Shown here: in pieces, positions 2,803 through 39,467 of the stretch
How positions within the stretch are numbered: position 1 is the first letter of the stretch
Layout of the letters: the number at the start of each line of letters is the position of its first letter
DNA from: an uncultured Erysipelotrichaceae bacterium
GTDB lineage: Bacteria > Bacillota_I > Bacilli_A > RF39 > UBA660
Length of the DNA stretch: 64,000 nucleotides
Reading direction: 5' to 3'
Assembly (NCBI GenBank): GCA_902779035.1
Contig: CACZAH010000007.1
Location: forward strand, 1,184-65,183
The notes under the pieces: model-generated
Database searches by the model: none
Told to the model about the DNA's origin: nothing
Seen by the model: the letters and a program-made list of their open reading frames with translations, nothing else
Translations under genes and position numbers: made by a program

Positions 2803-3141
2803 ATGAATGTTACAACGGAGTTTAGAAGTGGCATATTATTTGTAAGATTAAGTGGTAATTTAACTAAAGATACAGTTAGTATTTTAAATGATAAAGTTAC
2901 TAATTTAGTAAATAGAGTAGGTATTAGACATGTAGTATTTAATGTTGAAAACTTGGATAATATTGATTATAAAGGTATTAGTACATTACTATATAATTAT
3001 GAGATAGTTAAAAGGAATGAAGGTAATGTATTCTTATGTGGTGGCAATGAGAAGGTAGATAAAATACTTAAGTATAATCACGTGTTTAAATATATTAGTG
3101 AGATAAGTAGTGAGTTATGTGCATTAAATTTGATGAGATAG
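2803..3141 (+). CDS. STAS-domain anti-sigma-factor antagonist (SpoIIAA/RsbV-like)
   Basis: 112 aa with a STAS-like pattern (GILFVRLSGNL...VVFNVENLDNIDYKGISTLL). Lies immediately upstream of, and overlaps, a SigF/B-type sigma gene. Confidence 0.65.
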   Translation: MNVTTEFRSGILFVRLSGNLTKDTVSILNDKVTNLVNRVGIRHVVFNVENLDNIDYKGISTLLYNYEIVKRNEGNVFLCGGNEKVDKILKYNHVFKYISEISSELCALNLMR

Positions 3142-3164
3142 CAGTGTTAGAGAGGATAATGTTT

Positions 3165-3815
3165 ATGACTGTTGAAGAGGCTATTTATAATAATCAGGGT
3201 TTAGTATATTCTATTGCTAAGTATTTTAAGAATTATAAAAATAAAGATGATTTATATCAAGCAGGATATTTAGGTATTGTTAATGCTTATAATAATTATA
3301 ACCCATCTTTTGAATGTAAGTTTTCAACATATGCTTATACTTATATTTATGGTGAGATGAGAAAGTTAGTTAGAGAAGATAGAAGTGTTAAAGTAAATAG
3401 AAGTATTAGTAAGTTTAATTTACTTATTGAAAAAGCATATATGTTATTAAGTCAGAAATATATGCGTATTCCAACTTATAAAGAAGTAGCTGACTATCTT
3501 GATATTACAGAGTATCAAGTATGTGAAGCTATTATGAGTAATAATGCAGTTAAAAGTATTGATGAACCTATTAATGATGATGCTAGTTGTACATTACAAG
3601 AGATTATTGGGTATAGTGATAATGTTGATGATTTAATTATGCTTAAGGATAGTTTGCTTAAACTAAATAATAGAGAAATGGAATTAATTAAGAATCGCTA
3701 TATGAATAATTTAACACAAACTGAAACTTCTAATATAATGAATATGTCACAAGTACAAGTTTCAAGAAAGGAAAAAAAGATATTACAGAAGTTAAAAAGC
3801 ACTATGGTTTCATAA
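3165..3815 (+). CDS. Group-3 RNA polymerase sigma factor (SigF/SigG/SigB type)
   Basis: Region 2 DLYQAGYLGIVNAYNNY...FSTYAYTYIYGEMRK; region 4 HTH LTQTETSNIMNMSQVQVSRKEKKIL. ATG 3165 has the best spacing to SD GAGAGGA; the track start 3117 overlaps the STAS gene. Confidence 0.85.
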   Translation: MTVEEAIYNNQGLVYSIAKYFKNYKNKDDLYQAGYLGIVNAYNNYNPSFECKFSTYAYTYIYGEMRKLVREDRSVKVNRSISKFNLLIEKAYMLLSQKYMRIPTYKEVADYLDITEYQVCEAIMSNNAVKSIDEPINDDASCTLQEIIGYSDNVDDLIMLKDSLLKLNNREMELIKNRYMNNLTQTETSNIMNMSQVQVSRKEKKILQKLKSTMVS

Positions 3816-3827
3816 AACAAATAATAA

Positions 3828-3866
3828 AAAGACAATCTAAGCAGTTATCTTAAATTGTCTTTTTTA
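3828..3866. terminator. Bidirectional hairpin between the convergent sigma and RT genes
   Basis: 9-bp stem AAAGACAAT / ATTGTCTTT flanked by an A-run and a T-run; overlaps the RT stop codon. Confidence 0.55.
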
Positions 3867-4803
3867 GTTTATAAATATATTCTTTATACTTCTTAAACTC
3901 TACGTCACTATTATTTATATTTAATACGTGTAATATCTTGCCATATAACTTATTAATATATTTTTTCTTACTTATCTTATTATTACGCTTATCTAGGTGT
4001 GATTCTAATCCATATTTCTTAATATAATATACTTCTTGTCTTATATTTTTACGATACTTAGAATTTACTTGTACTTTCTCATTAACGGTAATACCTGTAA
4101 CTGATTGATTATGATTCTTATAAATAACATGTATCTTATTATTATTTATCTTTAAATGTAATTTATAAAGCATCTTTCTTACTTTACTTATGATTTTATT
4201 AGGACTAAAATTACCAGAGAAAGTCATATCATCAGAATACCTAGTATAAGATATATTATTACTAGTGCACCAATTACCTAGCTGTTCGTCAAACTCTTTC
4301 ATAACTAAATTAGATATATATGCTGAAGTAGGAGAACCTTGTGTAAGATGATCATCATAAGTACATAAATAGGTAAGTAACATTCCAACTTGTTTAGGAT
4401 AGTATTCAATAGAAAAACAAGATTCATATACATCAATAAATCTAATATTTTCAAAGAAATCTATAATATCTAATTTTAATATAACTTCTTTATTAACGTG
4501 GGGTATTGCATTATCTTTTAAAGATATACCTTTATGATATGCTTTAGCAAACTTAGATATTTCTTTATTATTTAGAATATTAGTAAGAATATTTCTTTGT
4601 ATATGCTTAAGTAATTTATTAGGTTCATATATAGTTCTATAATTACCATTTCTTTTCTTAATTTTATATACTCGATAATACTTCCAAACTCTATTACTAA
4701 TAGAATAAAGAGTTTTAATATATTTATTATTATCATTACAATCAAATAAATTAAGAGATATTAAAAACTCATTACACTTATCTTTACTCATGTACTTCCA
4801 CAT
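3850..4803 (-). CDS. Retron-type reverse transcriptase
   Basis: 317 aa with RT motifs: DNAIPHV (retron NAxxH), LTQGSPTSAYISN (motif 4, QGxPxS), RYSDDMTFS (YxDD) and NQSVTGITVNEKV (retron-specific VTG). GGAGG SD at 4812-4816. Confidence 0.85.
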   Translation of the reverse strand: MWKYMSKDKCNEFLISLNLFDCNDNNKYIKTLYSISNRVWKYYRVYKIKKRNGNYRTIYEPNKLLKHIQRNILTNILNNKEISKFAKAYHKGISLKDNAIPHVNKEVILKLDIIDFFENIRFIDVYESCFSIEYYPKQVGMLLTYLCTYDDHLTQGSPTSAYISNLVMKEFDEQLGNWCTSNNISYTRYSDDMTFSGNFSPNKIISKVRKMLYKLHLKINNNKIHVIYKNHNQSVTGITVNEKVQVNSKYRKNIRQEVYYIKKYGLESHLDKRNNKISKKKYINKLYGKILHVLNINNSDVEFKKYKEYIYKLKKTI

Positions 4804-4816
4804 TCTTAATACCTCC

Positions 4817-4966
4817 TAGCAGTACTAATGATATAGTAATATGAAAATGGATTAAAGCGTAAGCGTCTACACGAAGTGTAGGGTGATCCTTTGAAATATT
4901 ACTATTAATCCTATAATTAATAAACGTCCCTTAACGACTCGTTAAAGTAAATAATCACTACTGCAC
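4817..4966 (-). ncRNA. Candidate retron msr/msd non-coding RNA
   Basis: Non-coding stretch directly upstream of the RT on the same strand. The 5' segment GCAGUAGUGAUUAU (4951-4964) is complementary to the 3' segment AUAUCAUUAGUACUGC (4819-4834), as expected for a1/a2 repeats. Internal hairpins: UUAACG-AGU-CGUUAA (4931-4945) and CUACAC-UUCG-GUGUAG (4867-4881). Starts about 7 nt after an extended -10 element. Confidence 0.5.
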
Positions 4967-4970
4967 CCCA

Positions 4971-4979
4971 ATTATAGCA
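4971..4979 (-). promoter_or_regulatory. Extended -10 element (TGcTATAAT) for the retron transcript
   Basis: The minus strand reads gTGcTATAAT-tggggtGCAG. No convincing -35 element. Confidence 0.4.
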
Positions 4980-5083
4980 CACTTTGAATAAAAAGATTAA
5001 TAAATATTATAAAAGTATGTTTTAAAGAATAAAGATGTGATGCTTTTTTATATTCATGTTCATTAGCCATGAGTTATATCTTG

Positions 5084-5174
5084 CAAGAAACTTATATTTT
5101 TTTGGATATTTTTGTCGAAAAAAAAGGAAATTTGAAACTTTTAACTAATAATATATATAGAGGAATAAGAGAGA
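5084..5174 (+). repeat. Copy 1 of a ~90-nt conserved leader that precedes both Rpn-like genes
   Basis: Near-identical to 39377..39467: CAAGAAA..TTTTTGTC(G/A)AAAAAAAAGGAAATTTGAAA(C/G)TTTTAACTAATAATATATATAGGAG..ATAAGAGAG. Confidence 0.75.
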
Positions 5175-5287
5175 TGCTTTTTTCTTCTTAGAAAGAGATA
5201 TTTATATGTGCTATAAATATTGTTATGATTTTTGGTGAGTATCTAATTATAAAAGAATCAATTAGTAGTTTAGAAGGGAAGGTTATA

Positions 5288-5664
5288 ATGGAAACAAACA
5301 ATTATACTAAAGATTTAGGTCCTGATGAGACAATACCTATTTGGTTCGATAAGTTATTTAAGCTTGTATTTGCAAATAAAGACCATTTAGAAAGAACTAA
5401 ATTTCTTATTTCTTCTGTTTTAGACTTGGAGATTGATAATATAGAGCTTATTAATTCTGAGATAATAGAGGATAACAGAATGAATTTAGTAAAAAAGAAG
5501 AGCTACTAAAAGCAGGTATGCAGAATGAACTTGCTGCAAAAACTAAAGAGGTTGCTGAAAAGACTACTTTAGATATGGCTCGAAAGATGAAACAAGAGGG
5601 AGCTAGTTTAGATTTTATATCTAATGTAACTGTACTGTCTTTTGAAGTAATAGAAGAGTTATAA
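5288..5664 (+). pseudogene. Internally deleted Rpn-family (PD-(D/E)XK, transposase_31-like) gene remnant
   Basis: The N-terminus (PIWFDKLFKLVFANKDHLERTKFLISSVL) parallels 39492..40526 (VDRAFKRVFADENHLERLNLLLGVVL). The frame stops at 5509. A 48-aa ORF at 5518..5664 (..KTTLDMARKMKQEGASLDFISNVT..) parallels the C-terminal tail (KKTTLELAKRLKESGVSVDIIKNTT). The nuclease core is missing. Confidence 0.6.
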
Positions 5665-5776
5665 TTAATAAAATCAGGAATAATTATACTTATTCTTGAT
5701 TTTTTAGTAAGTTTACATTAATTATTGCCAAATGAATATATTTATAGTAAAATTAATATACGAAAGGAATGATTAT

Positions 5777-5986
5777 ATGTTATTAGATATATTACAAATA
5801 TTAGGGGGATTAATTGTTGGTGCGATTGTCGGATTTTTAATTGCTAGAAGTTATATGAAAAAATTTATTAAGAAGAATCCTCCAATAAATGAAGGTATGA
5901 TTAAGGCTATGATGATGCAGATGGGTAGAACTCCATCTCAGAAACAAGTTAATCAAATGATGAAATCTATGGAAAAGTATATGTAA
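5777..5986 (+). CDS. yneF: UPF0154 (YneF) family small membrane protein
   Basis: An N-terminal TM helix followed by KKFIKKNPPINEGMIKAMMMQMGRTPSQKQVNQMMKSM, the characteristic YneF signature. ATG 5777 follows AAAGGAA. Confidence 0.7.
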   Translation: MLLDILQILGGLIVGAIVGFLIARSYMKKFIKKNPPINEGMIKAMMMQMGRTPSQKQVNQMMKSMEKYM

Positions 5987-6025
5987 ATGGTACATTAAGT
6001 TGTATCTTTTTTCATACAATTAAGT

Positions 6026-6607
6026 ATGATAGGTATTATATTAAATGATGGTGTTAGTAATGAAAATAATAGTATTAATTATGTATATTCATGCTTTTTT
6101 AAACTAGGTTATGATTACTTACTTATACCTTTAACTACTATTGATGATATTAAAAGTAAGATTGATAAATGCAAGGGGATTATCATGCAGGGTGGTGATG
6201 ATTATAAAGATATCCATCTTAAAATAATTAAGTATATCCATGATATAGATATGCCACTACTTGCTATATGTATGAGCATGCAAGCTTTAGGGGTATTATT
6301 TAATGGAAAATTAAAAGGAATTGATAATCATAAAGATAAAAAAGACTATTCTCACTATATAGATATAAAAAAGAATACATTACTTTATAAAATAATAGGT
6401 AAGAATAGAATACAAGTTAATTCGTCACATAAGGAATGTTTAGAATATACTGATTTAACTATATCTGCTTACAGTAATTGTATTGAAGCAATAGAAGATA
6501 GTAGTCGTAAGTTTTTCTTAGGAATTCAGTGGCACCCAGAAAAGATGATTGAATATGATAAAGTAGAAAGAAGTATATTTGATTATTTTTATAAATCATG
6601 TAAATAG
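6026..6607 (+). CDS. Class I glutamine amidotransferase-like / gamma-glutamyl hydrolase (peptidase C26) family protein
   Basis: LLAICMSMQAL (nucleophile Cys elbow) and GIQWHPE motifs. Confidence 0.7.
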   Translation: MIGIILNDGVSNENNSINYVYSCFFKLGYDYLLIPLTTIDDIKSKIDKCKGIIMQGGDDYKDIHLKIIKYIHDIDMPLLAICMSMQALGVLFNGKLKGIDNHKDKKDYSHYIDIKKNTLLYKIIGKNRIQVNSSHKECLEYTDLTISAYSNCIEAIEDSSRKFFLGIQWHPEKMIEYDKVERSIFDYFYKSCK

Positions 6608-6615
6608 AGGTGTGT

Positions 6616-7902
6616 ATGAATTTAGATGAGATTATAAGTGTTACTAAAGGGAAAATTGTAAATGATTATAAGAAGGTGGTTGTTAATAGTTTTAAAACTG
6701 ATACAAGATGTCTTACTAAAGATGATGCTTTTATAGCTTTAAAGGGTAATAACTATGATGGAAATAGTTTTATTAATGATAATCTAGATTGTAAGTTAGT
6801 TATTACTGATGAGAATATTAAGTTAAAGAATATTCCAGTTATAAAAGTAGATAATACTTACGATACTTTATACTATTTAACTAAGTATAAGTTAAATAAA
6901 TATAAAATACCAGTAATTGCTATAACTGGTTCTAATGGTAAGACTACTTTAAAAGAGTTAATATATAATATATTAAGTACTAAATATAATGTACTTAAAA
7001 ATGATGGTAATAAGAATAATATTATTGGTGTATTTCAAACTATTAATAATTTAAATAGCAAACATGAATTAGTTATATTAGAACTTGGTATGAATCATAA
7101 GAAAGAGTTAGAAAGACTATCTAATATGATTAAACCAAGTTGTGCGGTTATTACTAATATAGGTTCATCTCATATAGGTAATCTAGGTAGTAGAAAGAAT
7201 ATATTTAAAGCTAAGATGGAAATCACTAGTGGACTTGATGGTATTTTAATAGTTAATGGAGATAATAAGTATTTAAAGAAGACTAATGGATATAAATGTG
7301 GAGTTAATTACACTAATGATTTAATTGCTTATAATGTTAATACATATGATAATTATTTAACTTTTAATATAAGTACTCGTAAAGAATATTTAGTTAAATT
7401 TAATAATACTGCACTAGAATATATTCCGATGTTACTAGAAAGTATTAAAGTTAGTTTAATGTATAATATAGATATTAATGATATTATTAAGTGTATTGAA
7501 GACTATAAACCTTATAGTAAAAGATTAAATGAGATTAAACTTGATAATTATACTGTAATAGATGATAGTTATAATGCATCTTATGAGTCTATGAAGTGTG
7601 GACTTAATGTATTAAGAAAATATAAAGGTAATAAGATAATTATACTAGGGGACATGTTAGAACTAGGTAAATATAGTTGTAAATATCATAAGAAGTTAAA
7701 TAGAGTATTAAATAAAATTGATAATAAGATAGTGCTTACAGTAGGAAGTTATACTAAATATATTAATTCTATGCACTTTAATAGTAATAAAGATATTATT
7801 AATTACTTATATAATCTTGATATAAGTAATACTACTATATTTATTAAAGGATCTAATAGTATGAAATTAAGTGAGATAGTTGATTATTTGATTTGCAATT
7901 AA
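6616..7902 (+). CDS. murF: UDP-N-acetylmuramoyl-tripeptide--D-alanyl-D-alanine ligase
   Basis: Mur ligase P-loop ITGSNGKTT, ELGMNH and DDSYNAS motifs, about 430 aa. Confidence 0.85.
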   Translation: MNLDEIISVTKGKIVNDYKKVVVNSFKTDTRCLTKDDAFIALKGNNYDGNSFINDNLDCKLVITDENIKLKNIPVIKVDNTYDTLYYLTKYKLNKYKIPVIAITGSNGKTTLKELIYNILSTKYNVLKNDGNKNNIIGVFQTINNLNSKHELVILELGMNHKKELERLSNMIKPSCAVITNIGSSHIGNLGSRKNIFKAKMEITSGLDGILIVNGDNKYLKKTNGYKCGVNYTNDLIAYNVNTYDNYLTFNISTRKEYLVKFNNTALEYIPMLLESIKVSLMYNIDINDIIKCIEDYKPYSKRLNEIKLDNYTVIDDSYNASYESMKCGLNVLRKYKGNKIIILGDMLELGKYSCKYHKKLNRVLNKIDNKIVLTVGSYTKYINSMHFNSNKDIINYLYNLDISNTTIFIKGSNSMKLSEIVDYLICN

Positions 7903-7965: not shown

Positions 7966-10317
7966 ATGAATACATTAAATGAATTGGAAGTAAAAACACT
8001 AGATGCTTATTTTAGGACAGTTAATTATCTTTCAGTGGGACAGTTATATCTACTTGATAATCCACTTTTAAAGCGACCATTAGAGTTAAAAGATATTAAA
8101 AACAAAGTAGTAGGGCATTGGGGTACTACTCCAGGACAGAACTTTATTTATACACATTTAAATAGAGTTATAAAGAAGTATGACCTTAATATGATTTATG
8201 TATCAGGACCTGGTCATGGTGGACAGGCCATGGTTTCTAATACGTATTTAGAAGGAACATATAGTGAAGTATATCCTGATATTACTTTAGATGAAGAAGG
8301 ATTAAAAAAACTATTTAAACAGTTCTCTTTTCCTGGTGGTGTGTCATCACATGTCGCACCTGAGACACCTGGTTCTATTAACGAAGGTGGCGAACTTGGT
8401 TATAGTATTGCTCATGCAGTAGGAGCAGTACTAGATAATCCTGGCTTAATCGCAACAGTAGTAGTAGGTGATGGAGAAGCAGAAACGGGTACTCTTGCAA
8501 CTAGTTGGCATTCTAATAAGTTTATTAATCCAGCTACTGATGGAGCAGTATTACCTATACTTCATTTAAATGGTTATAAGATTGCAAACCCTAGTGTACT
8601 TGCTAGAATTAGTGATGAGGAGTTAATCGCTTTATTTATGGGATATGGTTGGAGTCCAATAGTTGTAGAAGGTAGTGAACCTTATCTAATGCATGATAAG
8701 ATGGCTGCTGCTCTAGATAAAGCAATAGCAAGAATTAAACGTATTCAAGATAGAGCTAGAAAAGGTAGTGTTAAAAGGCCATTTTATCCAATGATTATAC
8801 TAAAAACCCCAAAAGGATGGACTGGACCTAAAGAGTTTGCAGGTAAAATTATTGAAGGTAGTTTTAGAGCTCATCAAGTACCAATTACAATAGATTCTAA
8901 AGAAGAAAATTTAAAAATATTAGAGAGTTGGATGCGTAGTTATCATCCTGAAGAATTATTTGATGAAAATGGAAAAGTATATGACTGGATAAAAGAATTT
9001 GTACCTAGTGGTAATAGAAGAATGGGAGCTAATCCTAATGCAAATGGAGGATTATTACTTAAGAGTTTAAGCGTACCTGATTTTAAAGAATATGGTATTG
9101 AAGTAGAATGTGGAAACACTATATCACAAGATATGATGGAATTAGGTAAATTTGTTCGCGATATAATAAAATTAAATAAAGATAATTTTAGAGTATTCTC
9201 ACCAGATGAAGCATTATCAAATAGATTAAATTATATGTTTGATGAGACTAATAGACAGTTTGAAGGTAATATTCTTGATACTGATGAATACTTAAATAAT
9301 AGTGGTAGAGTGATAGATTCAATGTTATCTGAAAACTTATGTGAAGGATGGCTTGAAGGATATTTACTTACAGGGCGTCATGGTTTCTTTGCTAGTTATG
9401 AAGCATTTGTTAGAATAGTAGATTCTATGGCTAGTCAACATGCTAAATGGTTAAAAGTGTGCAACAACCTAGAGTGGCGTGCTCCTATTGCGTCCTTAAA
9501 CTATATTTTAACATCACACTGTTGGCAACAAGATCATAATGGATTTACTCATCAAGATCCAGGGTTCTTAAATCATCTTGTTACTAAAAAGAGTGATATA
9601 GTAAGAATGTACTTGCCACCTGACACTAATACATTATTGTCTTGTTTTGACCATGTAATTAGAAGTAAGAACTATATCAATGTCATAGTCGCTTCTAAAC
9701 ATCCATCAGTACAGTGGTTAACTATGGAAGAGGCGGTAGAACATTGTACTAAAGGAGTAGGAGTATGGGAGTTTGCTAGTAATGATGCAGGAAATCCTGA
9801 TATTGTACTTGCATCATGTGGAGATGCTCCAACTCTAGAAGTGATGGCTTCTCAATCAATTCTAAGACATAATATACCAGATTTAAAAATAAGAGTAGTA
9901 AATGTAGTAGATTTAATGCGTCTTGAATCAAATGATAGACATCCTCATGGACTCTCTGATACTGAGTATGATAATCTATTTACTAAAGATAAACCAATAA
10001 TATTTGCATTCCATGGCTATCCTAGTTTAATACATCAATTAACATATAAAAGAACTAACCAAAAATTACATGTACATGGTTATATAGAAGAAGGTACAAT
10101 AACTACACCTTTTGATATGAAGGTACAAAATAAACTAGATAGATATCATTTAGTAATGGATGTACTTAACTATATAGATGGAGATTATAGAGAGCTAAAT
10201 GATTACTGTGTTAGTATGTTAGATAAACATAACAAATATATTAAAGAATATGGAATAGATATGCCTGAGGTAAGAGATTTTAACTGGGCAGATAGTATGA
10301 AGGATAGTGGTGATTAA
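7966..10317 (+). CDS. xfp: Xylulose-5-phosphate/fructose-6-phosphate phosphoketolase
   Basis: About 784 aa; [21 protein letters not shown] and GDGEAETG (ThDP-binding) signatures. AGGAG precedes ATG 7966; the track start 7933 is an extension. Confidence 0.93.
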
Positions 10318-39373: not shown

Positions 39374-39407
39374 AATCAAGAAATTTTATGTTTTCTTGAT
39401 TTTTTTG
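39374..39407 (+). terminator. Intrinsic terminator after the two-component operon
   Basis: Stem AATCAAGAAA / TTTCTTGATT followed by TTTTTT. Confidence 0.65.
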
Positions 39408-39467
39408 TCAAAAAAAAAGGAAATTTGAAAGTTTTAACTAATAATATATATAGGAGGGATAAGAGAG
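39377..39467 (+). repeat. Copy 2 of the ~90-nt conserved Rpn-gene leader
   Basis: Near-identical to 5084..5174; includes an A8-10 homopolymer whose length differs between the two copies. Confidence 0.75.

Follow-up and report, generated by a model that had tools for sequence, protein, structure and literature searches.

A stand-alone, Ec107-like retron cassette in an uncultured Erysipelotrichaceae bacterium

An Ec107-like reverse transcriptase gene

We analyzed a 64,000-nucleotide (nt) stretch of DNA (the window) from an uncultured Erysipelotrichaceae bacterium (assembly GCA_902779035.1, contig CACZAH010000007.1). It contains a minus-strand reverse transcriptase (RT) gene and, directly upstream on the same strand, a non-coding RNA (ncRNA) with the layout of a retron msr-msd RNA (Table 1). 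The 317-amino acid RT carries the four motifs listed in an initial annotation of the sequence, and all are conserved in homologues: DNAIPHV (NAxxH, region X; amino acids 97–103), QGSPTS (155–160), YSDD (189–192) and SVTGI (VTG, region Y; 234–238). In an alignment of 17 homologues, residues H102, G237, Y189, D191 and D192 were invariant and N98, A99, V235 and T236 were at least 90% conserved. A Pfam scan matched the protein to RVT_1 (1e-19) and found no extra domain.

The best PADLOC model was RT_Ec107-like (414.6 bits, 6e-125), which aligned RT residues 9–312 with profile positions 2–306. RT_III-A ranked second (347.9 bits, 1e-104), followed by other retron types (3e-45 for RT_I-A), and the top matches were all retron RTs. 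NCBIfam models scored 217 bits for retron_St85_RT versus 53.8 for Drt2 and 42 for group II RTs. The closest solved structures in a PDB search were also retron RTs (Ec86, Ec83 and Ec78), with 9e-32 for Ec86 versus 8e-6 for Drt2. By the sequence profiles, a check that the initial annotation had proposed, and by the solved structures, the RT belongs among retron RTs rather than among those of DRT2, group II introns or diversity-generating retroelements (DGRs).

We used two RTs of known type as profile controls. The genuine Ec107 RT scored 437 bits on RT_Ec107-like versus 313 on III-A, while the type III-A RT of an Aquimarina locus (L009) scored 330 versus 506. The controls thus score in opposite directions, which indicates that the two profiles discriminate. 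The Ec107 locus used here (L105) is that of E. coli 18-4, where a 319-amino acid "reverse transcriptase family protein" is encoded between slmA and pyrE. The window RT aligned with it end to end over 315 amino acids, at 40% identity (E = 8e-85). An insertion splits the slmA-pyrE junction in approximately 380 of 5425 complete E. coli genomes; in the one strain inspected (18-4; L105 2938–4115), it is retron-Ec107, with the 319-amino acid RT and the msr-msd upstream.

RT relatives numbered 1489 at E ≤ 1e-10, and the best 120 of them were nearly all 313–323 amino acids long (a few, 335–340). For comparisons of context we gathered 96 loci from genomes and metagenomes (designated by L numbers) and grouped their RTs into lineages at 95% identity, 37 of which had a known upstream region. 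The window family was recovered from gut and rumen-type metagenomes as well as from metagenome-assembled genomes labeled "uncultured Bacilli/Tenericutes".

A conserved msr-msd RNA upstream of the RT gene

Approximately 200 nt 5′ of the RT gene are conserved in every homologue with an RT identity of at least 52%. In the window, the RNA stretch GCAGUAGUG begins 6–7 nt past an extended −10 element, and the 146–148 nt from the start of GCAGUAGUG to position 4819 contain no open reading frame (ORF). Taken alone, the window RNA gives no significant fold signal. Its single-sequence fold was no better than that of shuffled sequences (z = −1.08), and the 17-nt inverted repeat at its ends (76%) was 1 of 23 comparable repeats in 400 AT-rich nt. 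Hence, only comparative analysis carries weight.

An alignment of 38 non-identical homologous RNAs provided that comparison. RNAalifold predicted five helices with 31 pairs, 19 of which had compensatory changes. On this consensus, 98.2% of the alignment cells were paired, versus 28–48% when the 3′ partners were slid by 1–3 columns. Similarly, the 19 pairs that had changed on both sides compare with 3–6 in the slid controls. Of 500 shuffles, 3 reached the observed value on one of the five measures and none did so on any of the others. The comparative evidence is decisive for the predicted msr-msd RNA being real, and the covariation that the initial annotation had suggested looking for in the terminal repeats and hairpins is present in both.

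The predicted elements of the RNA follow the msr-msd plan of a2, branching G, msr hairpin(s), msd stem-loop and a1, in the order described for retrons (PMC7736814). Compensatory changes in the terminal stem (GC↔AU, AU↔GC, UA↔CG and UA↔AU) affect three of the six pairs and one more pair at their flank, which in the window copy is a U·U mismatch. Beyond the six pairs, the window copy has a G·G mismatch and then at least four more possible pairs. The initial annotation had proposed a terminal pairing of 14–16 nt; the pairing itself is conserved and covaries, but the conserved stem spans only 6–7 bp. The base next to the stem, G4958, is invariant in all 38 homologues and, from this conservation, is the candidate branch point. 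It has a counterpart in the GCAAUA-G context of E. coli Ec107.

The other helices are similarly constrained. All cells of the msr hairpin were paired (100%) and five of its eight pairs were altered on both sides; this AGU-loop hairpin is likely the element recognized by the RT. The msd helices (3–5) had 10 pairs with compensatory changes, and the closing pair of the apical hairpin covaries (C-G/U-A). The short hairpins noted initially are therefore conserved, although the one described with a UUCG loop (4881–4867) has a 3-nt loop and is not a canonical cUUCGg tetraloop. Most relatives, like Ec107, have an additional small first msr hairpin (GGAAU..AUUCC), which is missing from the window copy and from L017 (presumably also from L018). 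Despite the same deletion, the L017 RT, which is 90% identical to that of the window, stays intact.

A covariance model (R1) built from the same 38 gut-Bacilli RNAs recognized held-out family members at 133–170 bits and gave a single match in the window (4816–4967, minus strand; 146 bits). Weaker matches were located upstream of RTs with 44–48% identity. With default filters, the model did not detect the E. coli Ec107 RNA. With the filters off, the Ec107 msr-msd (L105 3938–4115, minus strand) was its top match in the locus, at full length (22.1 bits, E ~0.003), and the alignment took in the terminal stem with the GCAAUA-G junction, the CG-AGU-CG apex of the msr hairpin and the hairpin at the tip of the msd. 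Rfam had no match in the whole window at gathering thresholds; at E ≤ 10, positions 3000–7000 gave nothing at the retron RNA and two sub-threshold, chance matches to snoRNAs (6191–6256, plus strand).

Table 1. Features of the retron locus and of related loci (window coordinates unless a locus is named)
Feature	Coordinates	Strand	Evidence
Retron RT, 317 amino acids, clade 2/Ec107-like	3850–4803	−	PADLOC, Pfam, Ec107 alignment, dN/dS
Predicted msr-msd ncRNA, 146–152 nt	~4819–4966	−	Covariance model, 19/31 covarying pairs
5′ arm of terminal stem (a2), GCAGUA	4959–4964	−	Pairs with 4819–4824; helix 1 covariation
3′ arm of terminal stem (a1), UACUGC	4819–4824	−	RNAalifold and pair counts
Candidate branching guanosine (priming 2′-OH), first unpaired base after a2	4958	−	Invariant, 38/38
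msr hairpin CUUUAACG-AGU-CGUUAAGG, 8-bp stem, AGU loop	4929–4947	−	Helix 2 covariation
msd stem-loop, putative msDNA template	~4832–4907	−	Helices 3–5 and inverted repeat I2
msd outer stem	4897–4902/4836–4841	−	
msd inner stem	4885–4889/4849–4852	−	
msd apical hairpin, 6-bp stem, 3-nt loop	4867–4881	−	
Extended −10, TGcTATAAT, 6–7 nt upstream of conserved RNA start	4971–4979	−	Sequence and homologues
Ribosome-binding site AGGAGG, 8 nt before ATG, conserved in homologues	4812–4817	−	
Bidirectional A-tract/hairpin/T-tract terminator, overlaps RT stop codon, last cassette element	3826–3864	−	
Whole cassette, promoter to terminator, 1.22-kb homology block	3821–5041	−	
Sigma-70 family gene, convergent with RT	3117–3815	+	Pfam
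Rpn-family (TIGR01784) relic, two ORFs (5225–5509 and 5518–5664), catalytic core deleted; neighbor, not part of the retron	5225–5664	+	
ABC-type ATPase upstream of ncRNA-RT in relatives	L010 4926–5792; also L031–L034, L039, L042, L045, L047, L050, L072, L073		
299-amino acid ORF downstream of RT in relatives	L004 7029–7928; L008 7021–7917; L057; fragmented in L005, L006		

A discrete cassette and its flanks

The promoter and terminator mark the ends of the unit. A TATAAT-like box is equally spaced from the 5′ GCAGUAG in nearly all homologues, in agreement with the extended −10 initially noted a few nucleotides before the RNA. A promoter consensus scan did not list this element, which we read from the sequence and its conservation. 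Homology with L017 extends over 3821–5041 (92% identity) amid different flanking genes. With L010 and L001, among the relatives at 70–75%, it extends over 3820–4981 (75% identity). In all three comparisons it stops at window positions 3819–3821, just beyond the terminator. Such sharp ends amid different flanks define the cassette as a discrete 1.2-kb unit.

We found no effector gene adjacent to the window RT or fused to it. As annotated initially, a bidirectional terminator faces the convergent sigma-70 gene on one side, and the only neighbor on the other is a decayed Rpn gene on the opposite strand, whose two ORFs match only residues 2–65 and 239–293 of the intact 293-amino acid Rpn protein (TIGR01784) of L017. 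Searches with tblastn found no PtuA-like ATPase near the RT (queries, the ATPases of relatives described below) and nothing meaningful in the window for the phosphoribosyltransferase (PRTase) and winged helix-turn-helix (wHTH) proteins of L009. No HNH gene is adjacent, and PRTase and wHTH genes are also absent from the RT flanks.

Other features of the flanks were recorded. The sigma-70 gene and a STAS (anti-anti-sigma-like) gene overlap at the start of the former (window 2803–3815 for the two), and the pair lacks an intervening gene for a SpoIIAB-type anti-sigma kinase. Abutting the 5′ boundary of the cassette is an AT-rich, intergenic repeat of approximately 80–116 nt (5045–5160), which has a second copy at 39377–39453; in L017, direct copies of the same repeat (305–394 and 1431–1546) flank the intact Rpn gene. 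A contig conspecific with the window, L018 (8.6 kb aligned at 97% identity), has a DGR-like pair, a bAvd-like protein and a second RT, a few kb past recA (8847–10272). The window has pilin-like ORFs (130–756 and 775–1092) at the corresponding position.

Maintenance of the cassette at an orthologous site

L019, from another species, carries a retron with a 74% identical RT at the orthologous chromosomal locus, following genes for a phosphoketolase, a Mur ligase, GATase and UPF0154. Nucleotide identity between the window and L019 is 82% in the flanks and 79% in the retron. The similar divergence of flanks and retron fits vertical inheritance. In this clade, which lacks any linked ATPase, the ratio of nonsynonymous to synonymous substitution rates (dN/dS) of the RT was 0.015 (L018), 0.14 (L017) and 0.21 (L019). 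Purifying selection, together with the preserved RNA structure, promoter, ribosome-binding site and terminator, argues against a decaying remnant. Furthermore, that selection has preserved a stand-alone cassette at an orthologous site argues for a function that does not require a linked effector.

An ABC-type ATPase gene upstream of the cassette in some relatives

Every ORF up to 4 kb from the RT in the 96 loci was assigned to a cluster. The sole recurrent co-oriented neighbor was a 288-amino acid ATP-binding cassette (ABC)-type ATPase (AAA_15/AAA_21), found in 21 loci that represent 7 of the 37 RT lineages; the other 30 had no conserved neighbor. The ATPase stop codon lies approximately 210 nt before the RT start, with the ncRNA and its promoter in between. 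The protein is weakly similar to PtuA/AriA/AbiLi-type ABC ATPases (1e-13 to 1e-16), and it has diverged in step with the RT (r = 0.84). The ATPase-ncRNA-RT unit occurs in several contexts, one of them as cargo of a Tn4451-like mobilizable element with a relaxase, TnpV and a large serine recombinase (L010–L015, 6955–10529). The L010–L015 relative is also the most widespread, with an identical RT protein on 111 contigs.

The association is variable. The ATPase gene is frameshifted in L011 and L044, and L037 retains just a C-terminal stub after a deletion of 4.2 kb. In a neighbor-joining tree without support values, the window's crown clade is a mixture of lineages with and without the ATPase, and all deeper lineages (52–65% RT identity) lack it. 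Homology of the cassette with ATPase-bearing relatives begins within 10 nt past the ATPase stop codon, and so does that between the 98% identical sister loci L073 (with the ATPase) and L029 (without it). ATPase homologues with 73–80% identity also occur without any RT, tightly followed by a DUF5680 or DUF2207_C gene (L097 4001–5732, L100 4001–5731 and L101 4001–5930). The gene order of the RT-less loci suggests a two-gene module of an ATPase and an exchangeable partner. These patterns fit a stable 1.2-kb cassette with a secondary, possibly functional, link to the ATPase in a minority of lineages. The upstream ABC ATPase is absent from both published accounts of the clade (Mestre et al., 2020; SPIRE preprint, 10.64898/2026.05.14.725207), and we did not find it reported.

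A second candidate was a co-oriented ORF of 299 amino acids just downstream of the RT. Neither Pfam nor NCBIfam gave a match, and the only similarity was a weak one to PD-T4-6, a kinase-type defense protein (7e-4). The ORF is confined to a single syntenic subclade (60–64% RT identity), with broken copies in L005 and L006. We treated it as synteny, although it could also be a partner specific to that lineage.

Relation to known retrons and other RT systems

Stand-alone (msr-msd)-RT cassettes have been described in the RT clade 2 branch to which Retron-Eco5 (Ec107) belongs, where only 2 of 59 members have a PRTase neighbor (Mestre et al., 2020; PMC7736814). Whether such cassettes use trans effectors or serve another function was left undecided (Mestre et al., 2020). 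In the SPIRE preprint (10.64898/2026.05.14.725207), "clade2_Ec107like" ranks second in abundance among retron groups (n = 192). Bacillota account for 93% of it and host-associated members for 91%, and it was scored without a recurrent accessory module. The gut or rumen and Bacilli origin of the window family evidently places it within this group, whose host and habitat (gut Bacillota) agree with it. Ec107 was excluded from the defense assays of Millman et al. Thus, the initial annotation was right that the window retron stands alone but not that its context is unusual. The stand-alone state is real, already described for the clade and equally bare in 30 of the 37 related lineages; it is the rule rather than the exception.

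The closest characterized relative is retron-Ec107 itself. The two RTs are collinear, similar in size (317 versus 319 amino acids), 40% identical and have the same best profile hidden Markov model. Their RNAs share the terminal stem, the GCAAUA-G junction, the CG-AGU-CG msr apex and a long msd stem capped by a hairpin. Both are compact cassettes of 1.2–1.3 kb between housekeeping genes and lack an effector. However, the window organism has a very low G+C content, its terminal stem is shorter (6–7 versus approximately 16 bp) and its copy has one msr hairpin where Ec107 has two. Furthermore, a subset of the window's close relatives has the upstream ABC-type ATPase, a feature that the two published accounts of the clade do not mention.

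Type III-A retrons (PRTase-like, winged-helix, ncRNA and RT) form the sister group in RT clade 2. Any accessory genes are co-oriented and upstream of the ncRNA, as with the PRTase-CE and wHTH genes of L009, the very position of the ATPase in the window's relatives. In contrast, the window RT has no adjoining PRTase or wHTH genes, and the III-A control RT scores in reverse on the two profiles. The 288-amino acid ATPase also recalls type I-A (Ec78/Ec83: ncRNA, RT, PtuA ATPase and PtuB HNH) in its weak similarity to PtuA. Yet it is encoded upstream, is half the size of PtuA and lacks an HNH partner, whereas the window has no ATPase and an RT of a different clade. DRT2 resembles the window locus in having two components, an RT and an ncRNA, but the window RT belongs to a different family, the RNA fold is of the retron type and there is no conserved repeat ORF.

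An autonomous retron as the probable reading of the locus

We consider it probable that the locus is an intact, selectively maintained, clade 2 Ec107-like retron in the form of an autonomous 1.2-kb cassette, in which the lack of a cis effector is the norm of the lineage and not a recent loss. This reading builds on the RT's identity, the structure and conservation of its RNA, the limits of the cassette, the selection acting on it and the lack of a conserved neighbor. In such a retron, the ends of the transcript would pair (a2 with a1) and the RT would recognize the AGU-loop msr hairpin and prime on the 2′-OH of G4958. The msd stem-loop would then be copied into a branched multicopy single-stranded DNA (msDNA) of roughly 80 nt. 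The RT-msDNA complex may act alone or with an unlinked partner, in line with the trans or non-canonical partner offered initially as a second reading. It could work as a sensor or guard module able to couple with partners from separate genes, a guess prompted by the ATPase upstream in approximately one-fifth of the lineages and by the PRTase and wHTH genes in the same position in the sister type III-A. Any role in defense would likewise be conjectural.

Several points weigh against this reading. The search for partners covered the 64-kb window of the host genome, and a partner could be encoded elsewhere. The production of msDNA is predicted from retron biochemistry and from homology with retron-Ec107. 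The covariance model match that links the RNA to that of Ec107 is weak (22 bits, with a rough E-value and the filters off), but it is correctly placed directly upstream of the RT. The loss of one msr hairpin from the window copy could impair its function. Finally, the co-divergence of the RT and the ATPase that seven lineages carry (r = 0.84) makes it possible that the window lineage had an ATPase-linked ancestor.

A more tentative view, which we regard as possible though rather doubtful, treats the cassette as a free-standing, exchangeable module. Either the RT-msDNA would itself be the active agent or its partners would be unlinked or interchangeable. The ATPase-ncRNA-RT arrangement would then be an undescribed type of retron, in which a small ABC ATPase, elsewhere accompanied by DUF5680 or DUF2207_C, had adopted a retron as its partner.

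Derivation of the window lineage from an ATPase-ncRNA-RT system is unlikely. It would mean that the 288-amino acid ATPase was lost and that the retron now uses a copy elsewhere or has a reduced function. The directly upstream, co-oriented position of the ATPase in 7 of 37 lineages and in several contexts, the Tn4451-like element among them, the correlated divergence, the mixing of lineages in the window's crown clade and the losses directly visible in L011, L044 and L037 are all expected from such a history. However, tblastn found no relic of the ATPase in the window, L017, L018 or L019, and the deeper-branching lineages all lack it. Homology between lineages with and without the ATPase breaks exactly at the cassette boundary, where insertion of a cassette fits as well as loss of a gene. 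Moreover, members of this ATPase family are found with different genes downstream when no RT is present, and the tree that shows the mixing is an unsupported neighbor-joining tree.

It is very improbable that the locus is a non-functional remnant that has lost its effector and is decaying, the first of the readings offered initially. The absence of a cis effector, the decay of the adjoining Rpn gene and the deleted msr hairpin would fit such a remnant. Against it are an intact RT ORF with complete catalytic motifs, low dN/dS values within the effector-less clade and compensatory changes that preserve the RNA structure. The promoter, ribosome-binding site and terminator are also intact, and the cassette has been kept at the orthologous site in a species whose flanks have diverged to 82% identity.

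We see little chance that the upstream Rpn-family PD-(D/E)XK nuclease gene, transcribed divergently, is or was the effector. Rpn genes do recur near the RT: as a relic in the window and L018, intact in L017 and L019, as fragments in L007 and as a fragment 3.5 kb upstream in L072. Yet Rpn genes are multicopy and mobile-like in such genomes. The L017 and L019 proteins are only 27% identical, and the L019 gene lies between GATase and UPF0154 while the window relic lies between UPF0154 and the retron. Such dissimilar and differently placed genes point to independent insertions rather than retron partners. The L007 fragments are on the opposite side of the RT, other lineages have no Rpn gene and purifying selection on the RT persists where Rpn has been destroyed. 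We rejected Rpn as the retron effector on its low identity, differing positions, absence from other lineages and the selection on the RT.

Least credible is a DRT2-like system, also raised initially, in which the RT and ncRNA would make concatemeric complementary DNA encoding a toxic repeat protein: the two-component architecture and one 114-nt stop-free frame in the window RNA recall it, but the Drt2 profile score (53.8 bits) is far from its cut-off of 390 while retron profiles score 217–415 bits, the RNA has the retron a1/a2 stem and invariant neighboring G, and the repeat ORF was rejected because 49 homologues have no conserved stop-free frame (the longest open stretch is 63–168 nt and varies in frame, and indels are not multiples of three).

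Significance for stand-alone retrons

Orphan retrons are the largest group of retrons without an assigned function, and the window locus is a clean, compact example that bears on the acknowledged question of how stand-alone retrons work. The recurrent small ABC ATPase of its relatives provides a concrete, testable candidate for effector coupling in the lineage. The window unit itself is natural, very compact (1.2 kb) and sharply bounded, with a minimal msr, which makes it convenient for expression tests. The cassette may also be usable for retron-based DNA production in low-G+C Firmicutes.

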